A program made the translations under genes and the position numbers. From the IMG/VR virus record IMGVR_UViG_3300047457_000862, positions 1 through 59,311 of that record: DNA of 59,311 bases. One strand, given 5' to 3'. Origin of the DNA: a virus (Duplodnaviria > Caudoviricetes). The notes under the pieces were generated by a model. That model saw nothing but the letters and a program-made list of their open reading frames with translations, did no database searches and had not been told where the DNA came from. Below, in pieces: positions 17,701 through 55,248 of the stretch. Every line of letters begins with the position of its first letter. Positions within the stretch are counted from its first letter, which is position 1.

Positions 17701-19075
17701 GAGCGAACTGGAAAGCGGTGCCCGTAGCAGACATGAGCATCTTGCGCTGCTCATCTTCCTTCTTGCGACCAGACAAAGCCTTTGCAGCAAGAACACCACC
17801 ACCGATCAGTCCGGCTGCGATCCCAATCTTCTTCAGCGTAGGGTAGCTGGTCCTAGATACATCAGGCATCTTTCCTTTCCATCCTTTCGGACGGCCCCCG
17901 CTTGCGAGCGCCTCCGCTGCTGCCGTGGGGTTGAATGCTGTGCGCTTTGACCCACCTTTCCATGGAATAGCCGCGTTCTTACCAGCCTCGACCTGAGTAA
18001 TATACTCAGGCACGTTGGATGGGTTTTTGAGGTAGTTCAGCTTTTCGCGAACTTCATCAACCCGGTTCGCATCAATACCAAGTCTGTGCGCCACCTCTGA
18101 GCGCATTTTATCACGTTGCTGTATGCGGATATTCCGAGCAGCCTCGCTCGGCAGCGCACTGACTCCAGACGTGGTTGCTTTTCCAGTAATATCCTGATCC
18201 GACTTCATCAAATTCTCGAAAGCATCCAGCGTATTGCGCTGCGCGGTAGGCAGGTCCTCTCCTAGCGCCCTACCGACCACAACCCCTCGACTCTTCATAT
18301 CATCCTCTATCGCCGCAGCGCGAGCGCGTATCTTCTGAAATCCCTCGTCCATCATGCGCCGATCCGCAATATCGTACTTTCTCCGTACCGCCTTCAGCTC
18401 CTTTTCTTGAGCCGGGGTCAGATCGTATGACAGTCGCGATTTTCCTGTGTATTTTCCGCTTTGGGATTTAACACCTCCGGTACGCCAGTCTCCATCGCGT
18501 TTCTTTATCTCCCTGACAAGGTTTCGGTTGATGACCGCCTGTGCGGCAAGTGCGCGACGAGCCTCGCTGTGCTTCTTTTCAAGGAACTTAGATCCAGCCC
18601 TCTGTAAAAACGAAGGGGCGTCCGGCTTCCCGGTTTGTTTGACTTCGATACCAATGAGAGCGTGCTTGAGTCGCTTCTTATCGATGAGCGGGGCTTTCGG
18701 GTATTGGCCTTCAGCGACCCGAACCAGAGGCTCCGCTCCTTTTTCTGTTCTCACATACCTGCCTCCACCCATCACCTCATAATTCTCGACCTTCTTCTGC
18801 CTCCAGAGCTTAGGGTTATCTACGCGCTCTCCACCCTTCCAGATTTTCATCGGCTGCTTCTTGCGCATGATCTCCTCCTCGCTCACGCGCTTGCGCTCCT
18901 CGGTAACGGCCCCGTGAAGCTCTCGGCCGAGCGCAGAATCAAGCGGGACCCCCATAGCATCTCCAGCTACGAGAATCTTCTTCGACATCACCCCCGGCTT
19001 CGCGAACATGAGCAGCCGCGAGATCGAGCTATTGAGTCGGAACAGGTGGTTTTTTGAGATTGGCGCGTGTGACAT
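14792..19075 (-). CDS. 1427 aa modular basic Gly-zipper-rich protein; putative polyprotein
   Basis: Repeated linkers (MSATGTAFQFA, MSSKVRQIRFA, MNSKLKTIQFR, FSARSKGRGIIHFI) separate Gly/Ala-zipper modules. Confidence 0.6.
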   Translation of the reverse strand: MSHAPISKNHLFRLNSSISRLLMFAKPGVMSKKILVAGDAMGVPLDSALGRELHGAVTEERKRVSEEEIMRKKQPMKIWKGGERVDNPKLWRQKKVENYEVMGGGRYVRTEKGAEPLVRVAEGQYPKAPLIDKKRLKHALIGIEVKQTGKPDAPSFLQRAGSKFLEKKHSEARRALAAQAVINRNLVREIKKRDGDWRTGGVKSQSGKYTGKSRLSYDLTPAQEKELKAVRRKYDIADRRMMDEGFQKIRARAAAIEDDMKSRGVVVGRALGEDLPTAQRNTLDAFENLMKSDQDITGKATTSGVSALPSEAARNIRIQQRDKMRSEVAHRLGIDANRVDEVREKLNYLKNPSNVPEYITQVEAGKNAAIPWKGGSKRTAFNPTAAAEALASGGRPKGWKGKMPDVSRTSYPTLKKIGIAAGLIGGGVLAAKALSGRKKEDEQRKMLMSATGTAFQFARGDRLKDMFPSLRKEIEKQLAENGPHIGDLVRVRPGFSKWKAKKNKSMAKTAADMMRLRRKRVKEEYAGVQESIEDLRDTFSSPKSVLDVNDIAEGFSTRSIPGYSGSSPTGKHVPYKKGRVKSVKTAPPKKEKVAERPMVIEDVTENLGRVENEAAALRRENRRLLEENYGASIAVESAEAKARAAEAARIKSEDRISSAVEGARESLADKLGKQHAKQMYDEQSRRYKHVAIGTGAGLVGGAALGSSAMREAGENKSKQKQLRFERGEYDDAKRMAISSAVTGAAGGGIVASLLRPRDGNAFRKGGPAPKAAPLRKQFNRIGKAAFKAGAFMGAAGLASSLVGRAILGKPDKRDAASATKSGAVGGAVVGGLSGAALGALAGADPKKLAVFGLTKKAAGLVRRNKNWIPIAAMGNGGSARRALIGGAVGTLAGAAQMADEGQQADTLRNLKKPVKMSSKVRQIRFAEAPLSGKLAADRYRKRIQDEDLDRRDANIMRTMLAGAALGGVMKGRRGAAAGAGAGALLVPLIRTRTEAGKDMYGERTREGKRAEGIPWKAAALGAGALAAHKGINRVRGVANRFNVGAKNAKKAAKIAGLVGAGLIGANLLMNSKLKTIQFRDEEDIETDPEFLRNPEGSKEWRKGRIFANKAIVAGKRGTRLAKDVIRAVKGEKNVDSRGRERQREWDKPWVRNAILGTILTGGALASRRIVKGTGEGTVISGWRDAVQSGELRDALTHKMPRLAKAYNAITGYTDDAVNEAASAVNQSGIAGRGLAWVRRNAAARREAKKAAARGAAGDEAATAIEAAKVAKDQQDAVKKYGKIIEGKFSARSKGRGIIHFISNEDRAPGWDTRREGDLVLLKDIRRRERREKKLLERKDWQDTVVTPAKMTASWLGGMGLMAILHKGGRAAGSRTSGGAGAAVTGDRSVYADKLREGIAEGAKRRAMGMSSVTKDLIALSSLLDDVL

Positions 19076-43024: not shown

Positions 43025-44317
43025 TTATCGGCATGTGAACATGCTGATTTTTCCAAGGAAGTCGAAAGGAACCACCGCACCGCGCGCGCCGTCGCGATTC
43101 TTGTCGATCGAGACGGAACGTGATCCGTCCTCGTTCTCGGTTACAGTCAGGATGATGTTCGCGAAGTTCTCCTTCGCCTGCGAGTAGCGAGCCTTCAACA
43201 CCCCGTCCTTGCTCTCCGTAACCTGCGACAGCAGAATCGTCGTGATCCCGAGTTCTCCAGCCACCTTCTTCCAGGACGCGGAGATTTCAGACAACCCCTC
43301 CTCCTTCGAAACCTTCGGAGGAAGCGTGAGGAGTTCGTCGTAATCCAACACGGCGAGCCCGAGGTCCCCCCTGCTGGCCCGGATCCGAGTGCGCTGGATC
43401 ACCGACTCGATCGTGGCTGGGCGCTCCTCGATGAATTCGATCTTCGAGTTCTTCACGCTTTCGGCCCCATGCTTGATTAGCCCGAGAGCACCCTTCTCGT
43501 GCAGGAGGTCGCCGCGGGACTTCATGTAGTCCTTGATGTTCGTCCTTCCGCGAAGCTGAATGAGCCGAGACACCTGCTGGCGCACGGTCATCTCGTAGGT
43601 GAAGTAGGCAGTGCCGAGCTTGTGAGCCCTGTCAAATGCCTCTGCGAGATTCAGAGCAAACGCGCTCTTTCCACTCCCGCGCGCTCCGCGGATTAGAATC
43701 ATGTCGCCCTTCTGGAATCCCCCAATCTGCTCATCGAGCGCACCAAATCCGGTGGGCATACCGAAGATGGCCTGCGAGTTCCCGGATTCGATGTCGCGGA
43801 TGATGTCGTCAACAGCAGCCTCAGTGGTGGTCTGGCGACTCCTTCCGGCAGCGCACATCCCAGCGGTTGCGGCAGCCACGGCAAGCTCGGAACAAATCTC
43901 CGCGGCAGTCTGAGCCCTGGATTCGATTCCGGCCAGGATGCCAAGACATGCCTCGCGGGCCGTGCGAACCACGTACATGTCCCTGACGATCTCCGCATAC
44001 TCGCGGACGTTGTGAGCGAACGCTACCGACGACATGATCCCGAAGATCATCGAGAAGTCGATGTGCGTGTGCCCCTTGCTGTGAAGGAACCGCAGAAACA
44101 CCACGGTATCGATCGCGTGCCCACTCAATGCTCCGCCAGAGATCACATACTCCCTCAGAGCGAGGTAGATGAATTTGTTCGTTGCGTTCTGGGAAAACCA
44201 TCCCTCGTCAGCGCCCATCTGTTCGACGACGATAAGGCACTCATGCGGGGCGTGCATGATCGATCCGAGCAAATGCTTCTCAGCTTCCTCGTTTGAATAT
44301 CGGATTGCGGAGCTCAC
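43025..44317 (-). CDS. dnaB: DnaB-like replicative helicase
   Basis: EAEKHLLG, PTGFGALD, GARGSGKS, TYEM, LDY, LLSQ, KNRDG. Confidence 0.9.
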   Translation of the reverse strand: MSSAIRYSNEEAEKHLLGSIMHAPHECLIVVEQMGADEGWFSQNATNKFIYLALREYVISGGALSGHAIDTVVFLRFLHSKGHTHIDFSMIFGIMSSVAFAHNVREYAEIVRDMYVVRTAREACLGILAGIESRAQTAAEICSELAVAAATAGMCAAGRSRQTTTEAAVDDIIRDIESGNSQAIFGMPTGFGALDEQIGGFQKGDMILIRGARGSGKSAFALNLAEAFDRAHKLGTAYFTYEMTVRQQVSRLIQLRGRTNIKDYMKSRGDLLHEKGALGLIKHGAESVKNSKIEFIEERPATIESVIQRTRIRASRGDLGLAVLDYDELLTLPPKVSKEEGLSEISASWKKVAGELGITTILLSQVTESKDGVLKARYSQAKENFANIILTVTENEDGSRSVSIDKNRDGARGAVVPFDFLGKISMFTCR

Positions 44318-45228
44318 TTGGCACCTCCCTGCTTCAGCAAACGGGCCTCCAGCTCACGCTGGTAAGCATCCCTCTTCTCTTTTTCCGACATCTGGCGCTC
44401 CGCAGCCATTTTCGCTGGCGACGCGACCACGGGGCTCGCAGGCGCGTTAAACCGTTCGAAGTTCATCTTCCAAGTCCGGGCCGCCGCCTTCCAGTCCTTC
44501 ATCTTCGTCCGACCAAGCATCCAACCGCGGGCCGCGTGGTGATTCACGAAAGCCTCGGCCTGCTGCTGCGACGCTCCGTTCAGACCAAGAGCCTTGAAGT
44601 AGCCTTCAGCCTCATCGAGCCTCGGTGGCGAGAACCGCCTCGGTGGCGCGTCCAGCAAAAGGGGGTCGGCGACACTGGGGGTTTTGTCACTGCATTTTGT
44701 TCCTACGGTTGATGTGGTTCTTCCATCAGTAGCCACTTCCCCTTCTTGTATTTTTTTCTTTTGTTCTCCAGAACTATTTGAAGAAGTCTTTGTACCTATA
44801 TAGGGAGTCTCTCGTTTTGATAGAATGGGTTGATCAATTTGATCATCACATGATTCTATCAATCTGATAGAATGGGTGCGCCTATCGATCCTTTCTTCAA
44901 GCACCTCGATAGCATCCCAGTCGATTCGATAATAGCACCTGCGGTTGAACTTCTCCGGCTGGCATGTGATGAGCAGTCCGCGCTCCTTCAATTCAGCCAT
45001 GACGCGGTTCAGTGTCGGGACGCTCAGAAACGGGAAATACTGAGCCTGCCATTCATCTATCGAATTAAAAACCCAAAGCTCACCATCGATGACGCGCCCT
45101 GTTCGTGGCTGCTGAAGGAGGTAGGCTATCTGCTGGAGCACGAGCGCCTCATTGACCCCGATTTCAACTGCGAGTTGAGGGAGAAGGAGGAGCGGGGTCT
45201 CCCCTCCGATTGTGCGAAAGCGGCTCAT
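44314..45228 (-). CDS. phage replication initiator protein
   Basis: N-terminal wHTH (LAVEIGVNEALVLQQI); C-terminal FSPP...GW...MKDWKAAARTW; upstream of helicase. Confidence 0.8.
   Translation of the reverse strand: MSRFRTIGGETPLLLLPQLAVEIGVNEALVLQQIAYLLQQPRTGRVIDGELWVFNSIDEWQAQYFPFLSVPTLNRVMAELKERGLLITCQPEKFNRRCYYRIDWDAIEVLEERIDRRTHSIRLIESCDDQIDQPILSKRETPYIGTKTSSNSSGEQKKKIQEGEVATDGRTTSTVGTKCSDKTPSVADPLLLDAPPRRFSPPRLDEAEGYFKALGLNGASQQQAEAFVNHHAARGWMLGRTKMKDWKAAARTWKMNFERFNAPASPVVASPAKMAAERQMSEKEKRDAYQRELEARLLKQGGAK
44818..44877. repeat. iteron-like repeats (candidate ori)
   Basis: TGATAGAATGGGT at 44818 and 44865; inverted ATTCTATCA at 44853; AT-rich flank inside the initiator gene. Confidence 0.55.
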
Positions 45229-45542
45229 AGCGTTGCCTCCCCGAAAAGAAACACCATCCTATCCTCGTGAACATCTGCATTCCTCTCGATGCGGGTGGCC
45301 GGAAAGACCACGAACCCCGCCTCCTTCATGCGCTCATGCGCCCGGGCTATCAGTGCCGTGACACGCTCGGTCGAGTCGATTTGTATTTCGTAGCTCTCGC
45401 AAAAGTTCACAAAGTCGCAAGCATGTTCAGCGCGGGTGAAAAACGGGAAGGGAGACATGCAGTATTTATCCATTATCCCAATTATTTCCTCAGTGGTCAG
45501 CGGACACACCGAGCTATTCAAGATTTCAGTTTTCATAAGCAA
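45225..45542 (-). CDS. hypothetical protein
   Basis: First gene of the replication operon. Confidence 0.5.
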   Translation of the reverse strand: MLMKTEILNSSVCPLTTEEIIGIMDKYCMSPFPFFTRAEHACDFVNFCESYEIQIDSTERVTALIARAHERMKEAGFVVFPATRIERNADVHEDRMVFLFGEATL

Positions 45543-45828
45543 TAAAACGGCCCATCAAGGAAATCGGTCGGAGAGAGAATTTCACAGGCGGCGTGTCTCC
45601 ACGCTCTTTGGGTTCTCCGCCCGACTTCCTAGATGGGCCAAAATGTTACTCGAATTGATGTTATCCCGTGCGGTTTCTCAGGCCGATCGATTGCTCGATG
45701 GGCGATGAATTGCAGAACAAAACTTTCACGTCAACGATTATTTTCGTTGCACTTCTTTCCGATAAATGATGAAAACAGCTCGCTCGACGACAAGTTCGCG
45801 AGCAGCTTACACTGACAAAAACAAAACA

Positions 45829-46548
45829 ATGACACTGATCAAAACATCCACCCCCGACAGCCAGATAACGCTGTCTGAATCAGCCGCGGAAGCGAAGAAA
45901 ACGCTCACCATGGCTTCGTCTGAAATCACCGAGGTAAAATCCCCGGAAGAGTCCACCGCGGCGAAAGCCGTGATCGCGAGAATCGACACCCACATGAAGG
46001 ACTTCGAGAAAGCGCGGGTCGCTGCAAAAGCGCCGTTCCTCGAAATCTGCCAGAAGCTCGACGCACTCAGCAGGGAGCATGTGGCATCGCTGGACTCGGA
46101 ACGGAAGCGGCTCAGCCGAATCGCAGCAGGGTTCGACGCCGAACAACTTCGAAAAGCGCAGGAGGAGGCGGCAGCGGCGCAGCGAAAGGCCGAGGAAGAA
46201 GAGCGCGAGCGGCGGAAGGCAATCGCTGAAGCTGAGAAAAAGCAGCGTGAGGCCGAGCAGTCCGGAGACGAGGCGGCAAAGCTGGAGGCGGAGATCCTCG
46301 CGGAAACCGCCAATGAGGCACCAGCGAAAGCCGTGGTCGTCGCCCCGATTCCAGAACATCTGGAGGGCATCCGGATGAAGACGGAGATCACCGTCACGGA
46401 CATCAAGGCGCTCTACGCTGCGCATCCGATGTTCGTGCGGCTTGAACCTGATCTGCGGATGATCCGCGCTGCGATCGACTCCGGGCAAACACTACCTGGG
46501 GTCAAGGTTGAGAGAGTTCCCGATGTCGCGAAGAGGAGGGGCGTATGA
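45829..46548 (+). CDS. coiled-coil recombination-associated protein (Gam/Gp157-like)
   Basis: Long helix, C-terminal LPGVKV; upstream of SSB and recombinase. Confidence 0.6.
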   Translation: MTLIKTSTPDSQITLSESAAEAKKTLTMASSEITEVKSPEESTAAKAVIARIDTHMKDFEKARVAAKAPFLEICQKLDALSREHVASLDSERKRLSRIAAGFDAEQLRKAQEEAAAAQRKAEEEERERRKAIAEAEKKQREAEQSGDEAAKLEAEILAETANEAPAKAVVVAPIPEHLEGIRMKTEITVTDIKALYAAHPMFVRLEPDLRMIRAAIDSGQTLPGVKVERVPDVAKRRGV

Positions 46549-46859
46549 GCGAAAAACGAGACAACAGCGGATCGTCGTTCCCGAACGACAGACGCCGCGA
46601 AGGGAAGAACGACCCGAACATCACAGGTTCCGTCATGATCGACGGGGAAGAATACTGGATGGACACGTGGGTCAAGAACCACCCCAAGCAGCCCAACCAC
46701 GACCCTTCGAAGAAGACCTGGTATTCGCACAGCTTCCGAAAGAAAGACTCACAGCGACAAGCTCGCCAACCACAACAACGCCGACAATCGGCACCACCTC
46801 CACCACCACCATCCGATAACGATGGAGGACTCCACCCGGACGAACAAACCTGGCAATAA
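46545..46859 (+). CDS. putative ssDNA-binding protein
   Basis: PNITGSVMIDGEEYW..W; Pro/acidic tail. Confidence 0.65.
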   Translation: MSEKRDNSGSSFPNDRRREGKNDPNITGSVMIDGEEYWMDTWVKNHPKQPNHDPSKKTWYSHSFRKKDSQRQARQPQQRRQSAPPPPPPSDNDGGLHPDEQTWQ

Positions 46860-46865
46860 CACACC

Positions 46866-47930
46866 ATGAACGAACAATACACACTCGAAACAATCGCAAC
46901 CATCAGCGAGAAACTTGCCCGAAGCGGCTTGATGGGAGGAAAAACGTCACCGGACGCGGTCTTTGGACTGATGCTCCTGTGCCAGAGCGAAGGCATGACG
47001 CCGATCTCTGCCATGAAGCGATACCACGTCATCGAGGGCAAGCCCTCTATGCGCGCAGACGCCATGCTTGCGGAGTTCCTCAACGACGGCGGCCGCGTCA
47101 TCTTTCACATCCGCGATGATGACATGGTGGGCGCTACGTTTATCTCGAAGACAGTGACGGTAGGGCAGGAGCACATCGACCGCGCCAACCAGCGGTTCCT
47201 TGCGGTGTGGAAGCTATGCTCAGCCCCGGCAGGGGAGCGCACGGGCCTCTACACGACCATTGCCAAGCTGTCGCACCCGGGCGAGGAAACCATCATCCGC
47301 ACATTCGCTGACTGCGACGCCAAGGGGCTTACGACGGGCAGCGACGGAAACCTGAAGAAGAACTGGGCGCAGTCACCGCGACAGATGCTCACCGCCCGCG
47401 TGATCACCGAGGGAATCCGACTGGTGGCACCACAGCTCGTCACCGGGGTCTATACGCCGGAGGAAATCAGCGATGAATCACCGCTTTCAGGGCTGGTGAA
47501 GAAGCAGACTGCCGAAGAGTTGCGGAAGGCCGCGCTCGACGAGACAGACCCCGAGAAGCGTCGTGAGCTGCTGGGTGCCGCTTCAGATATCGCGCACTCG
47601 GAGACGAAAGAGGCAGTGCTTGTGTTGGAGCAGGACGATATCCCGATGGGAGACGCGAAGCCCGCGAAGGCCAAGCAGATCAAACAGCAGGAAACCGAAC
47701 CCGCTCCGGACGTCGAGCCGCCGCTCCAGATCGGAGTTCCGTGGCAGGACTACGTGATCACCGAACTGAAGAACAAGCAGATGAACGGGCGAAAGCTCGG
47801 GACTCTGTCGAAGGCTGAGCTCGCAATGCTTCACCGCACGCGCTGCATGCCGTTCCTCAAGTCCGACAACGACAGGCTGCGCCTTGAGGCCGAGAAGATC
47901 CTTGAAGCATGTGAATCCTTCGCGCAATGA
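46866..47930 (+). CDS. RecT-like ssDNA annealing recombinase
   Basis: HVIEGKPSMRADAM, NWAQSPRQMLTAR, GVYTPEE. Confidence 0.75.
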   Translation: MNEQYTLETIATISEKLARSGLMGGKTSPDAVFGLMLLCQSEGMTPISAMKRYHVIEGKPSMRADAMLAEFLNDGGRVIFHIRDDDMVGATFISKTVTVGQEHIDRANQRFLAVWKLCSAPAGERTGLYTTIAKLSHPGEETIIRTFADCDAKGLTTGSDGNLKKNWAQSPRQMLTARVITEGIRLVAPQLVTGVYTPEEISDESPLSGLVKKQTAEELRKAALDETDPEKRRELLGAASDIAHSETKEAVLVLEQDDIPMGDAKPAKAKQIKQQETEPAPDVEPPLQIGVPWQDYVITELKNKQMNGRKLGTLSKAELAMLHRTRCMPFLKSDNDRLRLEAEKILEACESFAQ

Positions 47931-48208
47931 ACAACGACGCAAACACTCCGGCAGTAAGGATCACCGCATCCGCAATCGAGGCGACCATTCTCATGTTTCT
48001 GTTCACGTGGGTCCTTGGGAAATACGGAGTCCACGCGCCGAAGATTCCGATGTGGATGTCCGTATTCATTGCGTCCTTGTTCGAGGCATGGGCGAGTAGA
48101 TGGGGATACCACCCAACGAAATTGTCAAACATGGTCCGACGCTCATTCCAGGGCTCTGTAATCATTGCGATCCTCGCGCTGATCGCAAAATGGGTCGGGA
48201 TGCTATGA
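47927..48208 (+). CDS. small membrane protein
   Basis: Three hydrophobic segments. Confidence 0.55.
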   Translation: MNNDANTPAVRITASAIEATILMFLFTWVLGKYGVHAPKIPMWMSVFIASLFEAWASRWGYHPTKLSNMVRRSFQGSVIIAILALIAKWVGML

Positions 48209-48576
48209 CAACCAAGAAGAAGCTGAGTGCAATCCGCGCGAAGTGCGTTGAGCTTTTGGCGATTGCTGAGAAGCGGACGCAAGGCCAATGGAAACGGCAG
48301 TCAATATATGGGACGGCTATTTTATGCGAGAATAGCAAGAATAACGGGAATATGGTTTGCGATTTGCCAGATTCAAGCCCTGAGTGCGATCAATTTTCAC
48401 CTAATGCAGATTTTATTGCCTCATGCGCCGGACCCGCAGAGGCAGGATGGAAAGCTACGATTGCGGCGATTGATTCACTCGAAACAGTTGCGGAATGGCA
48501 TCCAAGTGGTGCCGCTAAAAACGAAGAAGCCGCAGCGATTGACGCAATCATCGCCGCATGGGAGGGCCTGGCATGA
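48205..48576 (+). CDS. Ead/Ea22-like protein
   Basis: KRTQGQW...NADFIASC. Confidence 0.55.
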   Translation: MTTKKKLSAIRAKCVELLAIAEKRTQGQWKRQSIYGTAILCENSKNNGNMVCDLPDSSPECDQFSPNADFIASCAGPAEAGWKATIAAIDSLETVAEWHPSGAAKNEEAAAIDAIIAAWEGLA

Positions 48577-48820
48577 CCAAGCTGCTTCCCGGAGATCGCG
48601 TTTCGTTCATCCAGAACGGACGCAGACTGCGCGGCGTGATCGCCGATGCTTTGCAGATAAAAGTGCGCGGCGAGGAGCTGGAGCTACCCGTGGTTCGGCC
48701 ATCGCGAAGATCTGCTTCTCGCCCGCTCATGGAGCAGCAAAGGCCGCCGAAGCTGCGCTGGATCAAGCGGTCCCTGCTCAGGAAATTGCCAGTCAAGAAG
48801 GAGGGCGGAAAGGAGCAACA

Positions 48821-49144
48821 ATGACAGAGAAAACTGCAACGCCCGACGAATTGGGAGCAGCGCCTTTTTCGCCAGTTTCGTGTCCGCTCTGCGACGGAGG
48901 CGGGCAAATCACAAATCCCGAGCATCCCGACCACCCAAAGAACACACACGACGGCCACGACGAAACGTGGTGCCTCGGCTGCGATGGCAGCGGTCTGCTT
49001 GAAGTAAAGCGAGGCGTAGTCATGCAGGGCAGATACGAGGGCGAAAGGCTCTCGCGGCTGAAAAGGTGGCGCGCGCAGGATGGTCCGCCGAACGACAAAC
49101 ACAGCGAACCCGCCGAGGGAACGCGCAACCAACACGAAAAATGA
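48821..49144 (+). CDS. DnaJ-type Zn-finger cassette protein
   Basis: CPLCDGGG...CLGCDGSG. Confidence 0.6.
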   Translation: MTEKTATPDELGAAPFSPVSCPLCDGGGQITNPEHPDHPKNTHDGHDETWCLGCDGSGLLEVKRGVVMQGRYEGERLSRLKRWRAQDGPPNDKHSEPAEGTRNQHEK

Positions 49145-49208
49145 CTGATACTAACCAACCCCAAAAGAAACCAGAAACGGCGGGTTCGCCTGCTGTGATG
49201 GGTTCTGA
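49087..49208 (-). repeat. attC site
   Basis: On +: GCCGAAC...CACAGCGAACCCGCCG / CGGCGGGTTCGCcTGcTG...GTTCTGA. Confidence 0.75.
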
Positions 49209-49611
49209 TTCCCTAGCCGAAAAGCTCTTTGCTGCCGACGGACTGGATATGGAGCTATTCGACACGGTAAACATGATACTTGGGTGCGACACGGGAAAAT
49301 GCACTGACACAGGATTTTTGTGGGGTGCGACCGATACAACTTGGGATCATTACGACTGCTCGGTTGAAATCATTCGTCCTATTCACAGCGAATGGATGTC
49401 GCGCGAGCAGGCAGATCAAATCCTTGCGTTAGGCTTCGCTCAGATATTTGAAACTGTTGGCGATAAAGCGCGGCAAATCACAAGGAAAGGAATAGGCACC
49501 TGTTCGCCGCGTGAGGCAGGGGAGGTCAGAAGGCTCAAGGCGGAAATAAACGCACTCAGGAATCAGAACGCAGAAGTCAGCGACCCGACGGAGGAGGGTT
49601 CGCTGCACTGA
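49141..49611 (+). CDS. cassette ORF, hypothetical
   Basis: Starts inside one attC loop and ends inside the next attC. Confidence 0.65.
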   Translation: MTDTNQPQKKPETAGSPAVMGSDSLAEKLFAADGLDMELFDTVNMILGCDTGKCTDTGFLWGATDTTWDHYDCSVEIIRPIHSEWMSREQADQILALGFAQIFETVGDKARQITRKGIGTCSPREAGEVRRLKAEINALRNQNAEVSDPTEEGSLH

Positions 49612-49621
49612 CTGGTTCGGC
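49563..49621 (-). repeat. attC site (59 bp)
   Basis: Minus strand: GCCGAAC-CAGTC-AGTGCAGC-GAACCC..GGGTC-GCTGACT-TCTGC-GTTCTGA. Confidence 0.9.
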
Positions 49622-49631
49622 ACATTCACCG

Positions 49632-49979
49632 ATGAAAACGAAAGACCAACTCAAACCAAACTTCGGGCCAGCCTACGCCGCCGCTATGTATCCCGGCCTC
49701 GCGGCAATTTTCCACTGCCACGGCTACGCGCTCGCGTGCCACGGAAGCCTCGCCCGCGACTTCGACCTGATAGCTGTGCCGTGGGCTGAAACTGTGTCAG
49801 ACCATGCGACGGTGCTGAAAGACGTGACGACGGAATACGCGCTGCGACTCACGGACGATGGCGAAATGAAAAACCACGGGCGAAAAGCCTACACGCTCTC
49901 ATGCGGATTTGGTGAGTGCGCGATAGACCTGAGCTTTGTGTCGAACGACCCAAGCTCAGCGACGCGGGAGACAATATGA
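49632..49979 (+). CDS. cassette ORF, nucleotidyltransferase-like
   Basis: GYALACHGSLARDFDLIAVPW (GS..D.D motif). Confidence 0.7.
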   Translation: MKTKDQLKPNFGPAYAAAMYPGLAAIFHCHGYALACHGSLARDFDLIAVPWAETVSDHATVLKDVTTEYALRLTDDGEMKNHGRKAYTLSCGFGECAIDLSFVSNDPSSATRETI

Positions 49980-50165
49980 CGAACGAACGGAAACCAAAGC
50001 AGCCTGCGGTCCTTGGCGGGCCGTGTGAATGCGGCGATGGATATGCCGCGTGCAATATGGTGCTCGCCTACGAATGCACCCAGTGCGGTAGGCGGGAGGC
50101 TGCGGATGAATCGGCTAAAGCGCCGGACGAACAGGAGGCGCGTTCGCTGCAGCGCGTGGTTAGTC
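49940..50165 (-). repeat. attC site with long loop (226 bp)
   Basis: GTCGAAC..GCTCAGCGACGCG / CGCGtTCGCTGcAGC..GTTAGTC. Confidence 0.75.
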
Positions 50166-50464
50166 GCCTTGAGTGGACTTTCGAAGCAGAGTCGCGGCGG
50201 TGGCTGGGGCGGCTTCGTGGACATCCCGACCGCACGCTGTTCATCCTCAATCTCGTGGAGGGCCGCGACGACCGCTGCCACCTTCTTGGCGGGGTGATGT
50301 CCGACAGCGAGGATAGGCAACACACCCGCGCACTCGTGACTTGGGCGAAAATGGCGGCGGAGTGGTATCTCGACGACTTCGAAGCACTGCTGAAGGCGAC
50401 TAACAATCAAGCTCACCTACCCGCTCCGGCGGAGACGGTGGAGCGCAAGAAAGACAATCTATGA
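49976..50464 (+). CDS. cassette ORF, hypothetical
   Basis: Starts inside an attC loop. Confidence 0.6.
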   Translation: MTNERKPKQPAVLGGPCECGDGYAACNMVLAYECTQCGRREAADESAKAPDEQEARSLQRVVSRLEWTFEAESRRWLGRLRGHPDRTLFILNLVEGRDDRCHLLGGVMSDSEDRQHTRALVTWAKMAAEWYLDDFEALLKATNNQAHLPAPAETVERKKDNL

Positions 50465-50523
50465 ACACAGACACATCGAACGCAGAACAGCAGGAGCGGG
50501 TTAGGTGCAGCGCATGGTTAGAT
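50398..50523 (-). repeat. attC site
   Basis: GACTAAC..GCTCACCTACCCGCTCC / GGAGCGGGtTAGGTGcAGC..GTTAGAT. Confidence 0.88.
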
Positions 50524-50706
50524 GCCTGTAAGCGGCGCTACGAAGCAGCAATCAAAGCGCACTCGAAAGCACAAACAGCGGACGAGGAAAATAGACTGTT
50601 TGACGAAGTGGTGGCTGCAACCGACGAATACAGAACCGCGTCGGCATCTAACGCTGAACGCAGCGGCGTAACGTCCGCTGCCGTGACTGGTTCGCCACCT
50701 TTATGA
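50461..50706 (+). CDS. cassette ORF, hypothetical
   Basis: 81 aa; both termini are encoded by attC DNA. Confidence 0.55.
   Translation: MNTDTSNAEQQERVRCSAWLDACKRRYEAAIKAHSKAQTADEENRLFDEVVAATDEYRTASASNAERSGVTSAAVTGSPPL
50646..50696 (-). repeat. attC site (51 bp)
   Basis: ATCTAAC..CGCAGCGGCG / CGtCCGCTGcCG..GTTCGCC. Confidence 0.8.
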
Positions 50707-51065
50707 ACTCACTCGAAGTAATCAATGCCGAGAAACGCGCCTACGAGAAAGCGTGGAGATTGAAGAACATCGAAAGGTGTCGGCAATACTCGCGTGACAA
50801 TTACGCGAAGAATAAGGAACGCCGCCGCGAATATCGGTCCAAGTGGAGCAAAGCCAATCGCGCAAAGAAGAACGCCATAAACAAGCGGTGGCGCGAACGG
50901 CACCCGGATGTCGTGAAGGAATGCAATCGCCGCGAAATCGAGAACCTATCGGCAGCGTATGTAGCCAAGAAGATGCGCCTGCGTGTTAGCGAGTGCCCGC
51001 CCGAACTCATTCAACTGAAACGAACCCATATCCAACTGCAAAGAGAATTACGAAAAACCAAATGA
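50703..51065 (+). CDS. basic helical protein (cassette)
   Basis: R/K/Y/W repeats; PPELIQLKR. Confidence 0.65.
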   Translation: MNSLEVINAEKRAYEKAWRLKNIERCRQYSRDNYAKNKERRREYRSKWSKANRAKKNAINKRWRERHPDVVKECNRREIENLSAAYVAKKMRLRVSECPPELIQLKRTHIQLQRELRKTK

Positions 51066-51268
51066 CCACACCAACGAACATGCAAGAACTCCGCGCCGTG
51101 CTCTGCGAAACCATCGCCGCCGTTCGCGCAAAAGAAATCACACCCGACGCGGCGGAGGCCGTGAGTAATGCGAGCGGCAAAATAGTCGCGAGTTTCCGTG
51201 TGGAACTCGAATACCGCAGGATGCGAGGCGAAGTGCCTACACTCGGCTTCATGGAGGGCGGGAAATGA
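51062..51268 (+). CDS. small hypothetical protein (cassette)
   Basis: AEAVSNASGKIV; coupled to previous ORF. Confidence 0.6.
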   Translation: MTTPTNMQELRAVLCETIAAVRAKEITPDAAEAVSNASGKIVASFRVELEYRRMRGEVPTLGFMEGGK

Positions 51269-51672
51269 ACTGCGACGACGACCACCACGCGGCTATGGGT
51301 TCCATCGCGGAATCCAGCGCCGCGCAGGAGCAGGCTGTTAAACTCGCAAACCAAATCGACAAAGCACTCGCGCTAGTGAACGAAGAATGCCCAGCAATGG
51401 ATCATTTCACAAACATCGTTCCAACCGTAGAATGGCTGATTCAGAAATGGCGCGAATGTCGGAGGCTTTGGTCTAAATCATGCCAATACCGGGACAAATT
51501 ACGCGAGGAAAATCAACGTCTCCGCGACCACTTTTCTGGCCTGATTTACAGCGCAGAACGCGCAGCCGATTTGATTATTTCCGTGAGCGACCGATACGAC
51601 ATTGATGTTGCGATAGAGTCGGCAAAGGCGGTGCTGGCGAACGATGAGATCAGCCGGGAGGCGGGAGAATAA
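51265..51672 (+). CDS. hypothetical protein (cassette)
   Basis: Ends within an attC arm. Confidence 0.55.
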   Translation: MNCDDDHHAAMGSIAESSAAQEQAVKLANQIDKALALVNEECPAMDHFTNIVPTVEWLIQKWRECRRLWSKSCQYRDKLREENQRLRDHFSGLIYSAERAADLIISVSDRYDIDVAIESAKAVLANDEISREAGE

Positions 51673-51731
51673 TTTATGAAAAACACACAAGGCTCGCAGC
51701 CCGCCTCATCGGCTGCATCGACGGGTTCGGC
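51636..51731 (-). repeat. attC site
   Basis: GGCGAAC..GATCAGCCGGGAGGCGGG / CCCGCCTCATCGGCTGcATC..GTTCGGC. Confidence 0.85.
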
Positions 51732-52110
51732 ACTTACATTCGATGCGTTTCGTGCAGCGAACGTAGCACGCTGCCTCAAATGGCATCCCAAAGGAATCGA
51801 ATCGTGGTCGTCGTCAGACTGGCTCACCGCCGTCGCTGGCGAACTCGGAGAACTGGCATCACTGCTGAAAATGCGCAACCGAGAACGCGACGGGCTGCCC
51901 GGAAATAAGTTCAGCCCGACAGACAAACAAATCGCCGATGAAGTAGCCGACGTAGCGACCTACCTCGACCTGCTGGCATACGTGCTCGGCGTGGACATGG
52001 GCCGCGCGGTTGCGGAGAAATTCAATGCTGTCAGCGAGCGCGTGGGATTCCCCGACCGCCTCGAGGTGCCGAACGCAGAATCCACCGACGCGAAGCGTTC
52101 GGTGCGATGA
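51676..52110 (+). CDS. MazG-like nucleotide pyrophosphohydrolase (cassette)
   Basis: GELGEL...DEVADV..YL...KFN. Confidence 0.85.
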   Translation: MKNTQGSQPASSAASTGSALTFDAFRAANVARCLKWHPKGIESWSSSDWLTAVAGELGELASLLKMRNRERDGLPGNKFSPTDKQIADEVADVATYLDLLAYVLGVDMGRAVAEKFNAVSERVGFPDRLEVPNAESTDAKRSVR

Positions 52111-52120
52111 TTTGTTCGAC
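52068..52120 (-). repeat. attC site (53 bp)
   Basis: GCCGAAC..ATCCACCGACGC / GCGtTCGGTGcGAT..GTTCGAC. Confidence 0.88.
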
Positions 52121-52130
52121 ATTTACGACT

Positions 52131-52757
52131 ATGCAAACACAAGAAGCACTCGAAACACTTGACGCCATGCAGCGTCAAGTCATTCACGGCTCGACAGTCT
52201 TCAGGGACATCGGCGACGTGATACGGAATCTCACGCTTTCATGGACCGAAAAACCGCCAGACCAAGAGGGATGGTATTGGATTCGTTTCGCTGGGGTAGA
52301 AGCGCGACTGGTCAGTGTGGCTCATAATGGGACCACTTTGGAATACTACATATCAGGAATGGGTAAATTTAACCTATTCTACCCGCCCTCGCATTTCGTT
52401 GAGTTCGCCGGACCTGTGCGCGAACCGTCGAACAATAAAATGAACGAACCAGAACCAACTCCACCAACAGACAGCGGGCGCTTGCCTGACGCTACTTGTT
52501 CGCCTGCGGACGTTTTGCGGATACGCTGCATTCACCACATTAACGTGCCGCAACAAAACACGGCAGAGCACACTGGCGCGGAATGTGGTGGATGTATTGC
52601 CGCCGAACGGGACGCACTCAGATCCAAACTGGAGCAAGTGAGGAGACTGGCTGAGCATCTTGGATTCTGCCAACAGGTCTCCCAGAGGGAGATTGCCGAT
52701 GCGCTGACAAGCATACTGAATCAGGCGAACAAGGATTCTGCAACCGATTCACTCTAA
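52131..52757 (+). CDS. hypothetical protein, fusion of two cassette ORFs
   Basis: WTEKPPDQEGWYW module plus CIHH/ECGGC module joined across a decayed attC; second in-frame ATG at 52440. Confidence 0.55.
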   Translation: MQTQEALETLDAMQRQVIHGSTVFRDIGDVIRNLTLSWTEKPPDQEGWYWIRFAGVEARLVSVAHNGTTLEYYISGMGKFNLFYPPSHFVEFAGPVREPSNNKMNEPEPTPPTDSGRLPDATCSPADVLRIRCIHHINVPQQNTAEHTGAECGGCIAAERDALRSKLEQVRRLAEHLGFCQQVSQREIADALTSILNQANKDSATDSL

Positions 52758-52780
52758 CCGTTCGTCTAATCAAAATCCGA
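52724..52780 (-). other. attI-like recombination site candidate
   Basis: G|TTCGCC core without attC hairpin; two further GTT cores at 14-bp spacing. Confidence 0.5.
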
Positions 52781-52781
52781 C

Positions 52782-54632
52782 CTACCCCTGCACGTTCGCC
52801 GCGCTGGTCTCCCCGGGCATCGAAAGCAACCCGAGCTGGAGCGCCCTGATCGCAACGTGGCTCTCGCAGTCCGAGAGATGGTTCTCCTGATGAAGCTCAA
52901 CCCATGTCCACTCTACCTTGCCAGTGCGCTTATTCTTCTGCTGGCGCTTCACGCGTGAGTTCAAGTGGCGCTGGTAGCGGTCGCTCACGTTGATTGAAGC
53001 GTGCCAGATAACGGGGTCCGCGTAGCGCAGGCTCGACACGAGATCGAGGGCTCCGTTCTTCGAGAACTTCACGAATCGCACGCGCTGGACAGTGCGGTTC
53101 TCCCATGCGGTTCCGAGGAGCGGATCGCGGAACTGGACCTGTGAGTAAATCCTGGTGGTTCTCGTTCCATTCGGCCCTGGGTGGTAGAACTCCTTCGTGT
53201 TTGATCCCCAGATGCCGCGCCATCCGTAGCTGAGTATGATTCGGCCGACAGCGTTCGGTCGGTTCGCCATATCCACGGTGACGTTCTCGTCCGCAACTCC
53301 GTATTCGATCTGGACCTTCTTGATGTCGTCCTCGGTGTCCACGCGCTCCGCAAACACCAGCCAGCTCTCGCCGTGCGGCTTCTGTGGCGTCGGGCGGGCG
53401 AACTTCCGCACCAGCACCCAGTAGTGCCCCTCCTGCGCGTCCACGGCCATAAGCGGGACGGAGTCCTCCGGGGTCGATGTAATCTCCTCCAGCGGGATTT
53501 CCTTGTGATCGTAGCCGCGTGACTCGTCCCACGGTTCCGCAAGCCACGAGTTGATGAAGTTCTGCATGTCGCGCAGCAGCCCCTTGGATGTGAGATACTG
53601 AACTGCCACGGCCGACAGCGACGTCTGCTGCGACAGGATCGAGTATAGCGAGCTGAGTTGATACCCGAACCAGCCCGGGGCGCACTGCGAGTTTGTCGGG
53701 GTCCATATCCCCTCGCTGAGCATTGCCTGCCTCTCGATGTCCTGAATCTCTCCTCCGCACTCCTGACAGCGATAGAAGGCGTTCCTCGCCACTTTCTCCA
53801 TGTCCCACGCCCCATCGGTCTTCGATTCCTCCTCAGACTCTCTCCACCACCGCACCCCGCAATCGCCGTGCTCCTCCGACTTCGTTGTGAACATCAACCG
53901 GATGCGCCGTTCGCACCGCGGGCATGGGAGCATGTAGTATCGCTGGTCTGTCTTCAGGAACTCGGTCCAGATCATCCGGTTCGCCAGCGTCGGCGTGGAC
54001 GATTTCACCACCAGCGGGAACGGGTAGGTCTTCGTGCGCTCCTCCGCCAGTTTGATCGCCGCTGCCTCGAACTTCGACTCGTCGCCATACTTGTCCGTCT
54101 CGTCCATCCACAGCAGCCCTACGGGTCGGCTGGAAAGGTTCGCCGGAGAGTTGGAGCCTACAAAGTTGAGCACCATCGACGAGAAGTGCTGCTCCATGAA
54201 TCCGAAGAGATGCTTGTCGAACTCGCCGGATGCCGATCGAGGGACCATCGCCGCTGCCTGGGCGCACGCCCTGACGAACTTCTGCCACCGCGACTTCGAG
54301 AATGACTTCGCGAGCTCGCCATTCGGAAGCACCCACATGGCGTCCTGCGGATCCCGGGCCAGCCGATAGAGCATCCCGAGCTGCATGACCGAGGTTTTCC
54401 CGCTCTGCGTTCCGAACACCAGGACGAGGTGCTTTGAGTCCTTCTGCCCGATCCGCTCCAGCGGCTCCCTCAGATACGGAGTGAGCGTCATCGATGCCCG
54501 CCCCTGCACGGCACCAGTAGGGATGTCGCAGTTCGCCTCCACCCAGCTCACCACACTCTCGGTGGTCGGAGGCCTCAGTGCGTCCCTGAACCGCTGTTGC
54601 AGCTCCCTCAGTGCTTCAAGTCGATTACTCAT
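52782..54632 (-). CDS. terminase large subunit, GpA family
   Basis: TPYLREP, GTQSGKT, WMDETD, SSTPT, CPRC/CQEC, ENHLSDC. Confidence 0.92.
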   Translation of the reverse strand: MSNRLEALRELQQRFRDALRPPTTESVVSWVEANCDIPTGAVQGRASMTLTPYLREPLERIGQKDSKHLVLVFGTQSGKTSVMQLGMLYRLARDPQDAMWVLPNGELAKSFSKSRWQKFVRACAQAAAMVPRSASGEFDKHLFGFMEQHFSSMVLNFVGSNSPANLSSRPVGLLWMDETDKYGDESKFEAAAIKLAEERTKTYPFPLVVKSSTPTLANRMIWTEFLKTDQRYYMLPCPRCERRIRLMFTTKSEEHGDCGVRWWRESEEESKTDGAWDMEKVARNAFYRCQECGGEIQDIERQAMLSEGIWTPTNSQCAPGWFGYQLSSLYSILSQQTSLSAVAVQYLTSKGLLRDMQNFINSWLAEPWDESRGYDHKEIPLEEITSTPEDSVPLMAVDAQEGHYWVLVRKFARPTPQKPHGESWLVFAERVDTEDDIKKVQIEYGVADENVTVDMANRPNAVGRIILSYGWRGIWGSNTKEFYHPGPNGTRTTRIYSQVQFRDPLLGTAWENRTVQRVRFVKFSKNGALDLVSSLRYADPVIWHASINVSDRYQRHLNSRVKRQQKNKRTGKVEWTWVELHQENHLSDCESHVAIRALQLGLLSMPGETSAANVQG

Positions 54633-55248
54633 ACATTTTCTGCGCCTCCGTGATAATTTCCGTCGCTGCCGCCTCAAGCACATCGAACGCCCTGCGCGGG
54701 TCGGCTGGGTTACAGAGCGTGCATTTCGCCTGCGGGAGACGCTTCAGCCTGCCAATCATCAGATCCCACCCCTTCCTGAACATCTCCGTTGCTTCAGCCA
54801 GCGGGACAAGCACCCTGCGCTGCGCCTGCTCCTCGCGGTACGCCTTTTCCGCCGCGAACCGGGCCTCGATAGCCTTCGTGTGGATCGAGAGCGCTGGCGC
54901 GACCGCAGCGGGCTTTCCGGACGCCATGGCATCATCGAGCATCTTTTTCGCCTGAATCTGTGCCATGATCGCCGACTTCAGTGCCCCCTCCAGCGACATA
55001 TCCGCCGCGCTCGACGCATCCTTCCTCGGTCTGCCCCTTTTCCTCTTGGGTGGCTCGATCGACGCCACAACCTCCTCCATTTGCTCTGCCGCCCGCTTCC
55101 CTCCGGCCGACTTTCTCGACCTGGCATTCGCCTCCCGCCACTCCGTAGCGGCTTCTTCTGAGTCCAACGGCATCCCCTTCGTCGTGAGCTTCCTCACATA
55201 CTCCCGGGAGACGCCCCATCTGCGGGCAAGTTCAGCTTGGCGTATCAT
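54625..55248 (-). CDS. terminase small subunit (Nu1-like)
   Basis: N-terminal wHTH QAELARRWGVSREYV..GMP; LVP motif; overlaps terL. Confidence 0.8.
   Translation of the reverse strand: MIRQAELARRWGVSREYVRKLTTKGMPLDSEEAATEWREANARSRKSAGGKRAAEQMEEVVASIEPPKRKRGRPRKDASSAADMSLEGALKSAIMAQIQAKKMLDDAMASGKPAAVAPALSIHTKAIEARFAAEKAYREEQAQRRVLVPLAEATEMFRKGWDLMIGRLKRLPQAKCTLCNPADPRRAFDVLEAAATEIITEAQKMYE

Follow-up and report, generated by a model that had tools for sequence, protein, structure and literature searches.

A phage cassette array with attC-type sites, genes on the attC bottom strand and a codon-phased crossover

In sedentary chromosomal integrons, inverted cassettes (for example, those carrying toxin-antitoxin genes) have an ORF antisense to attC polarity, as does the phage array described here; these are isolated cassettes, with their own promoters and with complete ORFs between the sites, and not whole read-through arrays whose ORFs lack promoters. 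Clusters of attC sites without an integrase (CALINs) have been reported in phage genomes by Qi et al. (2023), and phage attC sites were recombined by IntI1 at G↓TTRRRY, where the arrow marks the crossover (PMC9892861). The present array resembles those clusters in having attC sites with cassettes and no intI nearby, but it is inverted, whereas the arrays in the part of that paper used here are oriented like typical bacterial ones or have divergent sites. The same part of PMC9892861 contains no mention of bottom-strand genes, of ORFs running through attC, of a codon-phased crossover, or of identical cassettes in different phages. A further parallel is offered by ORF-11 and ORF-18 of attI1 and by short attC ORFs, which, in the part of PMC8876359 used here, span the crossover and take an in-phase stop from the neighbouring cassette, with termination and reinitiation coupling translation to the next cassette. 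Those are small top-strand leader peptides of class 1 integrons, while in the phage array the neighbour's attC completes a full-length bottom-strand protein at every junction. The existence of attC clusters in phages is established, but the literature searched contained no example of this inverted, phase-locked, read-through architecture.

The array lies in a 59,311-nt stretch (“the window”) that constitutes IMG/VR record IMGVR_UViG_3300047457_000862 (Duplodnaviria; Caudoviricetes). We regard it as likely that the region is an integrase-less integron-type cassette array (CALIN) whose phage genes lie on the attC bottom strand, are phase-locked, and recombine at AA↓C. Its main properties are that the AA↓C crossover is codon-phased and that the cassettes are demonstrably mobile between phages. 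Sites were located with a covariance model, R1, trained on 14 aligned sites: six from the window, three from sibling contig L002, two from L041, and three from genome G002, the last being genuine attC sites that adjoin intI. The features, with the putative sites and genes, are as follows.

48821..49144, + strand: final backbone gene ahead of the array, 107 aa, with two CxxC pairs; attC1 encodes its stop and the preceding 17 codons, from Asn AAC 49091-49093 onwards
49087..49208, + strand: attC1 (bottom strand); R1 82 bits, E = 1.7e-17, and fold; in the loop, the upstream gene's stop overlaps ATG 49141 as ATGA
49141..49611, + strand: cassette 1 ORF, 156 aa, no family match; cassette limits 49093-49568, AA↓C to AA↓C
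49563..49621, + strand: attC2, compact, 59 nt; R1 59.9 bits on + and 11.2 bits on -; encodes the tail NAEVSDPTEEGSLH and stop of any ORF upstream
49632..49979, + strand: cassette 2 ORF, 115 aa; phage family phrog_35913, function unknown
49940..50165, + strand: attC3, with a ~170-nt loop, ATG 49976 (ATGA overlap) and a CxC...CxxC segment
49976..50464, + strand: cassette 3 ORF, 162 aa; cassette limits 49946-50403
50398..50523, + strand: attC4; R1 69.3 bits, and fold; loop with ATG 50461 (ATGA overlap)
50461..50706, + strand: cassette 4 ORF, 81 aa; cassette limits 50404-50651
50646..50696, + strand: attC5, compact, 51 nt; R1 43.8 bits; the upstream ORF reads through to a stop 8 nt past the site, overlapping ATG 50703
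50703..51672, + strand: cassette 5 region, with overlapping ORFs 50703-51065, 51062-51268 and 51265-51672
51636..51731, + strand: attC6; R1 57 bits; fold z = -2.8; stop 51670 and ATG 51676 in the loop
51676..52110, + strand: cassette 6 ORF, 144 aa, weakly MazG-like
52068..52120, + strand: attC7, compact, 53 nt; R1 51.8 bits; overlap of ATG 52107 and stop in the right arm
52107..52757, + strand: cassette 7 ORF, 216 aa, no family match; last 10 codons (NKDSATDSL) from terminal site T
52724..52766, + strand: terminal recombination site T, with a box ending AAC at 52728-52730 ... GTTCG
52782..54683, - strand: ORF that, from our own reading of the sequence, we take to be the terminase large subunit; convergent with the array, whose end it marks

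The seven R1 matches in the window are all on the + strand, with E values from 1.7e-17 to 1.4e-7, values that carry ascertainment bias for the six that are members of the training set. The seventh, attC3, lies outside that set and still scores 40.5 bits (E = 1.4e-7), and the best match beyond the seven sites across the whole 59 kb has E = 0.66. A scan for AAC...GTT hairpins gave five matches at a score of at least 22, versus 0, 0, 0, 0 and 1 in five shuffles. In the R1 alignment, 91.3% of cells are paired (17-38% in slid controls), with compensatory changes in 10 of 19 pairs; the inner L-box helix (helix 2) is 96.8% paired, with compensatory changes in 8 of 12. The outer R''/R' boxes, AAC at the left end and GTT at the right start, are invariant in all 14 sites, and the right-arm L box has an extra T, as do attC sites adjoining intI, where such an extrahelical base sets the polarity of the site. 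Between cassette 5 ORFs there is no good attC, the weak R1 match at 51200-51305 having 8.5 bits (E = 6.5), and this region may consist of several fused cassettes.

The window hairpin arms align with the three attC sites beside intI in G002, and R1 also matches 27 sites beside intact intI genes in G008 and G011. One arm motif occurs at at least 120 genome loci; among the matches listed, 79 belong to Verrucomicrobiota lineages, 14 to Planctomycetota and 27 to others. With R''/R' boxes, an L-box helix, homology to intI-adjoining sites and AA↓C boundaries all present, sequence comparison confirms the window hairpins as homologues of genuine attC sites of Verrucomicrobiota and Planctomycetota integrons. 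Seven sites in one orientation (+) within 3.0 kb, with no intI nearby, make the region a CALIN, as called with our own covariance model rather than that of IntegronFinder. The chromosomal integrons of G002, G008 and G011 have the same attC arms, boxes, extra T, AAC/GTT and crossover position, but unlike the phage array they possess intI and attI. Most of their sites have the same length, 93 nt, and GC-rich loops, whereas the phage sites range from 51 to 226 nt with A-rich coding loops.

The initial annotation had proposed that every array ORF is on the + strand, and that this is the attC bottom strand. The reference integrons bear this out: in 4 of 4 intI-bearing integrons, R1 matches fall on the intI-coding strand (30/30 sites; 3/3 in G002, and 27/27 in G008:C8, G011:C311 and G011:C444 together), so the window + strand is the attC bottom strand and the phage ORFs are antisense to normal cassette polarity. 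The G002 cassette ORFs listed lie on the strand opposite to the R1 matches, and of 91 cassette bodies in bacterial arrays, 86 have a top-strand frame that equals or exceeds the bottom-strand frame in length. A typical cassette has a promoterless top-strand ORF followed by its attC, and ORFs of G002 end before the site; those of the phage array occupy the bottom strand and continue through the sites.

At all seven window sites, the R'-box crossover triplet AAC is read in frame, as Asn, by the upstream ORF, and the ORF so framed stops inside or just past the site. By our own arithmetic, the chance of seven in-frame AACs is (1/3)^7, or approximately 5e-4. In phage arrays (canonical L041 left out), AAC is in the longest entering frame of at least 50 codons at 40 of 49 sites, another frame being longest at 4 and none qualifying at 5, a count that carries ascertainment bias in that the comparison phage loci were retrieved with a motif taken from the window. 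The corresponding figure for bacterial arrays is 22 of 112, and the full phase pattern is present at 19 of 112, a background level that GC-rich DNA is expected to give. Five of the seven window sites have a stop and start that overlap as ATGA; across 11 phage loci this holds for 17 of 50 sites, and the next start (of an ORF of at least 40 codons) is inside attC at 34 of the 50.

In the proposed mechanism, recombination would take place between A and C of the bottom-strand box ...AA↓C, i.e., G↓TT on the top strand, the usual place in integrons. Each cassette would then comprise the C of AAC with the rest of the left arm, which give the upstream ORF its final 10-20 codons and its stop; a loop in which this stop lies, usually overlapped by the start of the cassette's own ORF; a right arm encoding an N-terminal stretch; and a gene body that is still open at its ...AA end. 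Because AAC is always an in-frame Asn codon, any cassette order leaves every ORF intact and terminated, and the inverted in-frame layout would allow cassettes to be swapped between phages without breaking any gene. The hairpin, with a stop and a start in its loop, plausibly also couples translation of neighbouring ORFs.

Several lines of evidence suggest that the + strand ORFs are genes. The cassette 2 ORF matches phrog_35913 over residues 4-103 (E = 2.2e-31), and its homologue in L010 (60% identical) is followed by its own attC, again with AAC in frame. Cassette 6 has a match to PF12643 that is under the curated cut-off (E = 7e-4), and the loop region of attC3 has a weak DUF7129 match (E = 0.009). 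The tail NAEVSDPTEEGSLH of attC2 ends a different, MazG-like protein in L002, which matches phrog_715 (E = 5e-5). The PHROG search of minus-strand ORFs gave 0 matches for 6 ORFs. The fraction of purines at codon position 1 is 0.58-0.74 in the + ORFs, like that of backbone genes, versus 0.32-0.55 in antisense ORFs, and AT skew over the array is positive, as in other + strand gene blocks. Other phage arrays likewise have bottom-strand phage genes that end or start in attC, including DNA methyltransferases in L025 and L031 and phrog_3657 in L031. By these sequence measures, the + strand array ORFs look real.

The mobility of the cassettes is seen in two sibling contigs and four metagenomes, in which cassettes are gained, lost or replaced with joints at AAC. 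Siblings were found with the terminase ORF as anchor, which is 100% identical in L002 and L181. L002 lacks 49947-52725, with the joint inside a common 5-nt box, and has three other cassettes in place of cassette 1; the gene at 48821..49144 is identical there as far as the top of the left arm. In a contig from run X3, position 49089 is joined directly to 49566 with 5 letters in common, so that 476 nt are missing and cassette 1 is precisely absent. Loose contig ends occur at 49566, 49944, 50402/50404, 50652, 52071 and 52726 (four metagenome runs from four studies). Cassette 3 (49944-50404, 461 bp) recurs at 100% identity in a phage unrelated to the window phage, represented by the near-identical contigs L196, L197 and L198, and cassette 4 (50402-50652, 251 bp) does so in another unrelated phage, represented by the near-identical contigs L194 and L195. 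In both cases the match extends from AAC to AAC, neither set of contigs has any other match to the window, and the ORFs that flank the two cassettes are in frame there too. Overall, joints or homology ends fall at AAC in L002, L181 and L194-L198, and in runs X3, X4, X5 and X8. The depth of cassette 4 exceeds that of the backbone in runs X3 and X8.

The position adjoining site T is the most variable of the array. Three sibling contigs have three different upstream sequences there, each joined at AAC and each in frame (L181 providing the third neighbour), and a loose end in run X3 shows yet another. Site T is not a good attC by R1 (10.5 bits only, on the - strand), and in L197 cassette 3 is inserted at a non-attC AAC within a gene, so recombination is not restricted to attC x attC. 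Its sequence context makes site T a candidate for an attI-like site in the phage array; in L194, cassette 4 is followed by a T-like site.

The main competing explanation, which we consider unlikely, accepts the hairpins as recombination sites but attributes the exchange to something other than an integron integrase: a phage enzyme encoded in the unsequenced 19% of the genome, or RecT/exonuclease annealing of the conserved arms, with the likeness to attC reflecting common descent or capture of the sites only. There are RecT-like and exonuclease-like genes just upstream of the array, able to recombine short homologies, and a RuvC-like resolvase adjoins cassette 3 in L197. No intI or other tyrosine recombinase was found in any of six phage records (the window and five others), all of them fragments, 14-81% complete. 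Moreover, attC1 of the window and of L002 have both arms in common and different loops, which is not predicted by a simple whole-cassette swap. Annealing, however, would scatter breakpoints over arms of 20-25 nt, whereas the joints fall in the 5-nt box at the exact integron crossover position, even between sites that are otherwise unlike (attC3 and site T, or the non-attC target in L197), and the asymmetric bulge that sets polarity is conserved.

We find it improbable that the hairpins persist chiefly for a function in RNA, as translational couplers, attenuators or processing sites of the phage operon, with mobility a rare side effect of their resemblance to attC. The frequencies of stop/start overlaps and of starts inside sites given above would suit such a role, and an influence of attC hairpins, and of short ORFs inside them, on cassette translation is reported in the part of PMC8876359 used here. 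An RNA role nevertheless does not account for the crossover triplet being in codon phase, for cassettes that are 100% identical between unrelated phages, or for every box having several different neighbours across four metagenomes. RNA and recombination roles of the hairpins are not mutually exclusive.

It is very improbable that this is an ordinary bacterial array with minus-strand genes, captured by or mis-assembled into a viral contig, its + ORFs being accidents of GC-rich DNA: minus-strand open frames of 62-175 aa are present, and at least one array in IMG/VR has normal polarity (L041, which is classed as a provirus), but the PHROG matches are on the plus strand only, the plus ORFs tile the region with ATGA overlaps, and the junctions to the terminase and the RecT operon recur in independent contigs and runs.

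For an integrase-less array of the kind we favour, the recombinase would be a host IntI. The 59-kb record (81% complete) has no TIGR02249 or PF00589 match. The host of this freshwater phage is probably a member of Verrucomicrobiota. The contig has neither intI nor Pc, and the array is the far end of a + strand exonuclease/RecT operon, so read-through from this phage operon is the only evident route of expression and presumably transcribes the array.

We tentatively suggest, as a possibility that may well prove wrong, that phages infecting Verrucomicrobiota and related hosts keep a private pool of phase-locked cassettes, borrowing the host IntI for cassettes that are inexpressible in host integrons. 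If so, a phage cassette in a bacterial integron would be antisense to Pc and silent, as would a bacterial cassette in the phage operon, and the two pools would have the recombinase in common, but not expression. Site T would be the phage's own entry point, resembling attI, and the universal AAC phase would be comparable to intron phase in exon shuffling, any cassette order giving intact proteins. The recombining bottom strand would be the non-template strand of transcription and, if replication is co-directional with transcription, also the lagging-strand template; either placement would help the hairpins to fold and the cassettes to turn over quickly in the course of infection.

Expression, the true start codons and translational coupling are predicted here from ORF and site positions. 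The suggestion that stops and starts sit in the attC loops agrees with the site limits and ORF coordinates, and the four ATGs named in the initial annotation (49141, 49976, 50461 and 51676) are indeed inside attC, as judged from the fold and the R1 site limits. A fifth start, 52107, is also inside a site, while 49632 and 50703 are just downstream of theirs. All of the attC-encoded N- and C-terminal peptides that had been quoted as tags are present, with the exception that RSLQRVVSR is not N-terminal: it lies ~55 residues into ORF 49976, the attC3 loop being ~170 nt. Two further C-terminal tails can be added to the set, NDKHSE... (upstream gene) and NAERSG....

The window is one IMG/VR virus record of 59,311 bases, estimated to be 81% complete. 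Judged from ORF sizes only, the minus-strand genes in the first 22 kb or so resemble a structural block. The array of seven hairpin sites (attC1-attC7) and seven cassettes lies at the far end of a plus-strand operon, in the following surroundings:

43025-44317, minus strand: DnaB-like helicase gene
44314-45228, minus strand: DnaD-like loader gene
near 45.7 kb, plus strand: start of the operon that has the array at its far end
45766-46548, plus strand: exonuclease-like gene
46866-47930, plus strand: RecT-like gene
52782-54683, convergent with the array: large terminase gene, named by reading the sequence and 100% identical in sibling contigs

Deposited phages gave no megablast match to window positions 45000-55000, and a search of viral contigs with the RecT query returned solely a sibling contig that had already been found.

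Read at the junctions, each repeat is an imperfect hairpin. In its left arm, a box that ends in AAC is separated from the inner box by a spacer of 8-11 nt. A variable stem and loop come next, and in the right arm the complementary inner box, which has one extra T, is separated by a spacer of about 9 nt from a box starting with GTT. The spacers adjoining the boxes are unpaired. A scan for AAC...GTT hairpins with a score of at least 22 found five in the window, compared with 0, 0, 0, 0 and 1 in five shuffles, and when folded as single strands, six of the seven junction hairpins have z values from -1.5 to -2.8, with bulged stems. For a covariance model of attC (R1), 14 sites were aligned by their box-to-box coordinates (six from the window, three from the sibling contig L002, two from the locus L041 and three from one bacterial integron). 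Both arms align cleanly across the 14 sites, with 91.3% paired cells (17-38% in slid controls) and a compensatory change in 10 of 19 pairs. Over the 59 kb, R1 recovers seven sites, which lie within 49087-52120 and are all plus-strand (attC1-attC7 at 49087-49208, 49563-49621, 49940-50165, 50398-50523, 50646-50696, 51636-51731 and 52068-52120), and nothing besides these below an E-value of 0.66; the site at 49940-50165 scores 40.5 bits although it was outside the training set.

Two other candidate sites, 52427-52504 (R1 E-value of only 9.3; fold no better than shuffles, z = +0.6) and 51200-51305 (R1 E-value of only 6.5), were not counted, and a likeness of GGTTCG to a tRNA T-loop was dropped on reading, the following base being variable. 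The ATGs at 49141, 49976, 50461 and 51676 fall inside R1 sites, as the initial annotation had claimed; a fifth lies within a site at 52107, and the starts at 49632 and 50703 sit just beyond their sites. The loop of attC3, at about 170 nt (49976-50140), codes for a CxC...CxxC zinc-ribbon-like segment with a weak match to DUF7129 (E-value of 0.009), and appears to have grown into a protein domain.

Integrons are regarded as bacterial devices whose cassettes carry promoterless top-strand genes transcribed from the promoter Pc. When one genome per species was scanned with one right-arm motif, at least 120 loci were found; among the matches listed, 79 belong by their titles to Verrucomicrobiota lineages, 14 to Planctomycetota and 27 to others. 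In the bacterial genome G002 (Limisphaerales by title), three such sites are located directly upstream of an integron integrase gene, and the cassette ORFs are on the strand opposite to the sites, each ending before its site. The match of this integrase gene to TIGR02249 is split into two overlapping parts in different frames (237 and 200 bits; L180 15480-16500; G002:C1 899560-900493), so that the gene is a pseudogene with a frameshift or else carries an error of the long-read assembly. Three further integrons with an intact intI (473, 448 and 427 bits) contain 27 R1 matches, of which 27 are on the intI strand; therefore, the R1 strand corresponds to the bottom strand of normal integrons. Since the coding strand of the array is the plus strand, which is the R1 strand, the polarity call of the initial annotation, that the ORFs run antisense to attC polarity, is correct. 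By the features tested, the array is a set of attC sites and a CALIN, and is neither a complete integron nor made up of typical cassettes. R1 found no sites in loci around other tyrosine recombinase matches (L172, L173, L175, L176, L178 and L179). Verrucomicrobiota-type attC arrays also occur in five contigs titled as Klebsiella or Bifidobacterium metagenome bins (L072, L080, L117, L129 and L157), which are probably mis-binned or mislabelled.

The cassettes are carried by phages with their genes on the bottom strand, and the crossover (AA|C on this strand, G|TT on the top strand) is held in a fixed codon phase. In all seven sites of the window, a long ORF entering from upstream reads the left-box AAC in frame as Asn and terminates 10-20 codons further on; the stop codon is within the site, except for attC5, where it is 8 nt beyond the site. 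Other IMG/VR contigs were picked by the right-arm motif and scored with R1. Because this motif derives from the window, the proportions are not an unbiased census: in 10 viral loci (the window and L002 included, L041 excluded), the AAC frame is the longest entering frame (at least 50 codons) at 40 of 49 sites, with another frame longest at 4 and no qualifying frame at 5, and the stop is also inside the site at 39 of the 49. In 19 bacterial arrays, the AAC frame is longest at 22 of 112 sites, with the stop inside as well at 19, and of 91 cassette bodies, 86 have a top-strand frame no shorter than the bottom-strand one. The layout of L041, a provirus by its classification, is the usual bacterial one. 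Across 11 phage loci with 50 sites, the next ORF (at least 40 codons) starts inside the site in 34 cases, after it in 14, and is absent in 2, and an ATGA stop/start overlap is found at 17 sites. Known phage genes follow the rule, namely DNA methyltransferases in the contigs L025 and L031 and a phrog_3657 protein in L031. At one site of L002 (3342-3434, minus strand), the upstream ORF stops two codons before the AAC, still in the AAC frame; a mini-ORF of 15 codons in the loop extends into the right arm, where it stops, and the next gene begins past the site.

The ORF at 49632-49979 matches phrog_35913 (E-value of 2.2e-31, residues 4-103 of 115) and has a homologue, 60% identical, in the viral contig L010, where it is followed by its own attC; a MazG-like ORF in the sibling array matches phrog_715 (E-value of 5e-5). 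Six minus-strand ORFs gave no match to PHROG. The purine fraction at codon position 1 is 0.58-0.74 for nine plus-strand ORFs, 0.56-0.70 for backbone genes and 0.32-0.55 for antisense frames, and the AT skew over the array is positive, like that of other plus-strand gene blocks. GC3 is 0.53-0.69 for the nine cassette ORFs (49141-52757), whereas four backbone genes, among them those for the terminase, RecT and DnaB, have 0.74-0.81 and the fifth one tested (14792-19075) has 0.61; because the cassette values are below those of four of the five, this composition fits, weakly, with a foreign origin or a different gene pool. Ten ORFs gave no Pfam match above the curated cut-off and two weak sub-threshold ones (DUF7129 and MazG-like), and tblastn of 13 cassette proteins against the array loci gave two matches only, in L010 and L014. 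One cassette-sized interval of the window (50652-51641) contains three overlapping ORFs with two ATGA junctions and no attC between them, the only R1 match being the weak one at 51200-51305; these ORFs may be cassettes fused after site loss.

The elements are integron-type cassettes, bounded at the integron crossover position, and they move between phages. When viral contigs were searched with the cassette 3 and cassette 4 proteins, two phages came up that are not related to the window, and each is represented by a group of nearly identical contigs. The first (L196-L198, with genes for a DnaB helicase and a RuvC-like resolvase) has 461 bp in common with the window at 100% identity (49944-50404), and the second (L194 and L195, with a terminase and a portal gene) has 251 bp at 100% identity (50402-50652). 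Nothing else is shared in either case, and both identical segments are bounded AAC to AAC. In L197 (3900-4520), cassette 3 interrupts a coiled-coil gene at an AAC that is not part of an attC, and the reading frame is kept at both ends of the insert. Its flanks there are similar stretches of about 37 nt, both coding for AELERLKAE, and the cassette ORF continues in frame into roughly the final 30 codons of the target gene. In L194, cassette 4 is followed by a site like T, the terminal site of the window array (52724-52766), giving the tail NKD and a stop. The array-terminal sites of L194 (3789-3830) and the window (52728-52766) both start with AAC|AAGGATT and end with GTTCG, and, going by this likeness, may represent a conserved attI-like site. 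An all-against-all blastn of the array loci gave attC-level matches only, with no cassette common among those loci, and the cassette DNA (49093-52729) matched 0 of 401 genomes at an E-value of 1e-10 or less in an uninformative sample of the phylum of G002.

Exchange is also seen among close relatives of the window. L002, whose terminase is 100% identical to the window's, is without window 49947-52725, and the joint lies within a 5-nt box common to attC3 and site T, and is in frame. Where the window has cassette 1, L002 has three different cassettes and two further attC sites; its homology with the window restarts at the left box of attC2, and therefore the tail NAEVSDPTEEGSLH ends two unrelated proteins. 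In a third sibling, L181, another sequence is joined to T at AAC, in frame. At attC1, the window and L002 share both arms, and the loop and following ORF differ, which does not fit the proposed mechanism.

Contigs of four metagenome DNA runs from four studies were placed on 48800-52800, with uncovered parts not counted as evidence. Two RNA runs (X19 and X20), available as contigs that carry no strand information, contained about 5% of the sampled words. In one contig of 1,676 nt, 49089 is joined to 49566, so that the 476 nt skipped are exactly cassette 1. Loose ends are found at 49566, 49944, 50402/50404, 50652, 52071 and 52726, with several different neighbours (four runs), and the depth over cassettes 3 and 4 is several-fold greater than that of the backbone in three of the four runs. 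Joints such as 49967->50497, with 38 foreign letters in between, were rejected as phage variants; they are short canonical attC sites of other organisms, with 90% likeness.

Taken as a whole, we consider the cassette and phase mechanism highly probable. The structural part of the initial annotation's interpretation (the sites, their polarity, and ORFs on the bottom strand running through attC) stands, and its functional part, on transcription and translational coupling, is kept here in conditional form. The recombinase would be the host's IntI, because the sites belong to the attC family of the host phyla and the joints are at AA|C; dependence on host IntI specifically is somewhat favored. An integrase was found in none of the six phage records, all of which are fragments. 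The array would be transcribed from the phage operon, because it has no intI or Pc and all genes have the same direction. In the mRNA, a hairpin with a stop and a start in its loop could couple translation, such that a ribosome completing the upstream ORF would open the left arm of the hairpin and make the following start accessible; precedents for coupling are known from ORF-11 of attI1 and from short ORFs within attC sites (PMC8876359). Site T would act like attI, because the position adjoining it is the most variable.

To our knowledge, the attC clusters so far reported from phages are all arrays of ordinary appearance. CALINs of phages are known from Qi et al. 2023 (PMC9892861), and IntI1 recombines their attC sites; in the article text of that study, the phage arrays have typical orientation or divergent sites, whereas the window array has bottom-strand genes. 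Full-text searches of the literature returned no description of phage arrays with genes coded on the bottom strand, of phage ORFs that run through attC, or of a crossover in codon phase in phages. In the present array, these recombination sites are used in the reverse sense, with coding sequence woven through them and the crossover codon-phased. If this is true, it would show how phages swap small accessory genes as exact modules, two cassettes being 100% identical in otherwise unrelated phages, and the arrays would be a natural case of phase-compatible modular gene exchange in prokaryotic viruses. Furthermore, attC-encoded C-terminal tails starting with Asn would provide a signature for virome searches, and limits on gene flow between phage and bacterial cassette pools would become directly testable. 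Integron-finding pipelines that assume top-strand ORFs will mis-annotate such arrays.

The strongest AAC...GTT hairpin of the window, with a score of 37 in the hairpin scan, is at 45546-45647, in intergenic sequence from which the DnaD-like loader/DnaB and exonuclease/RecT operons diverge. It was rejected as a member of the array, as the attC model gives no match there, and could be an origin or operator.
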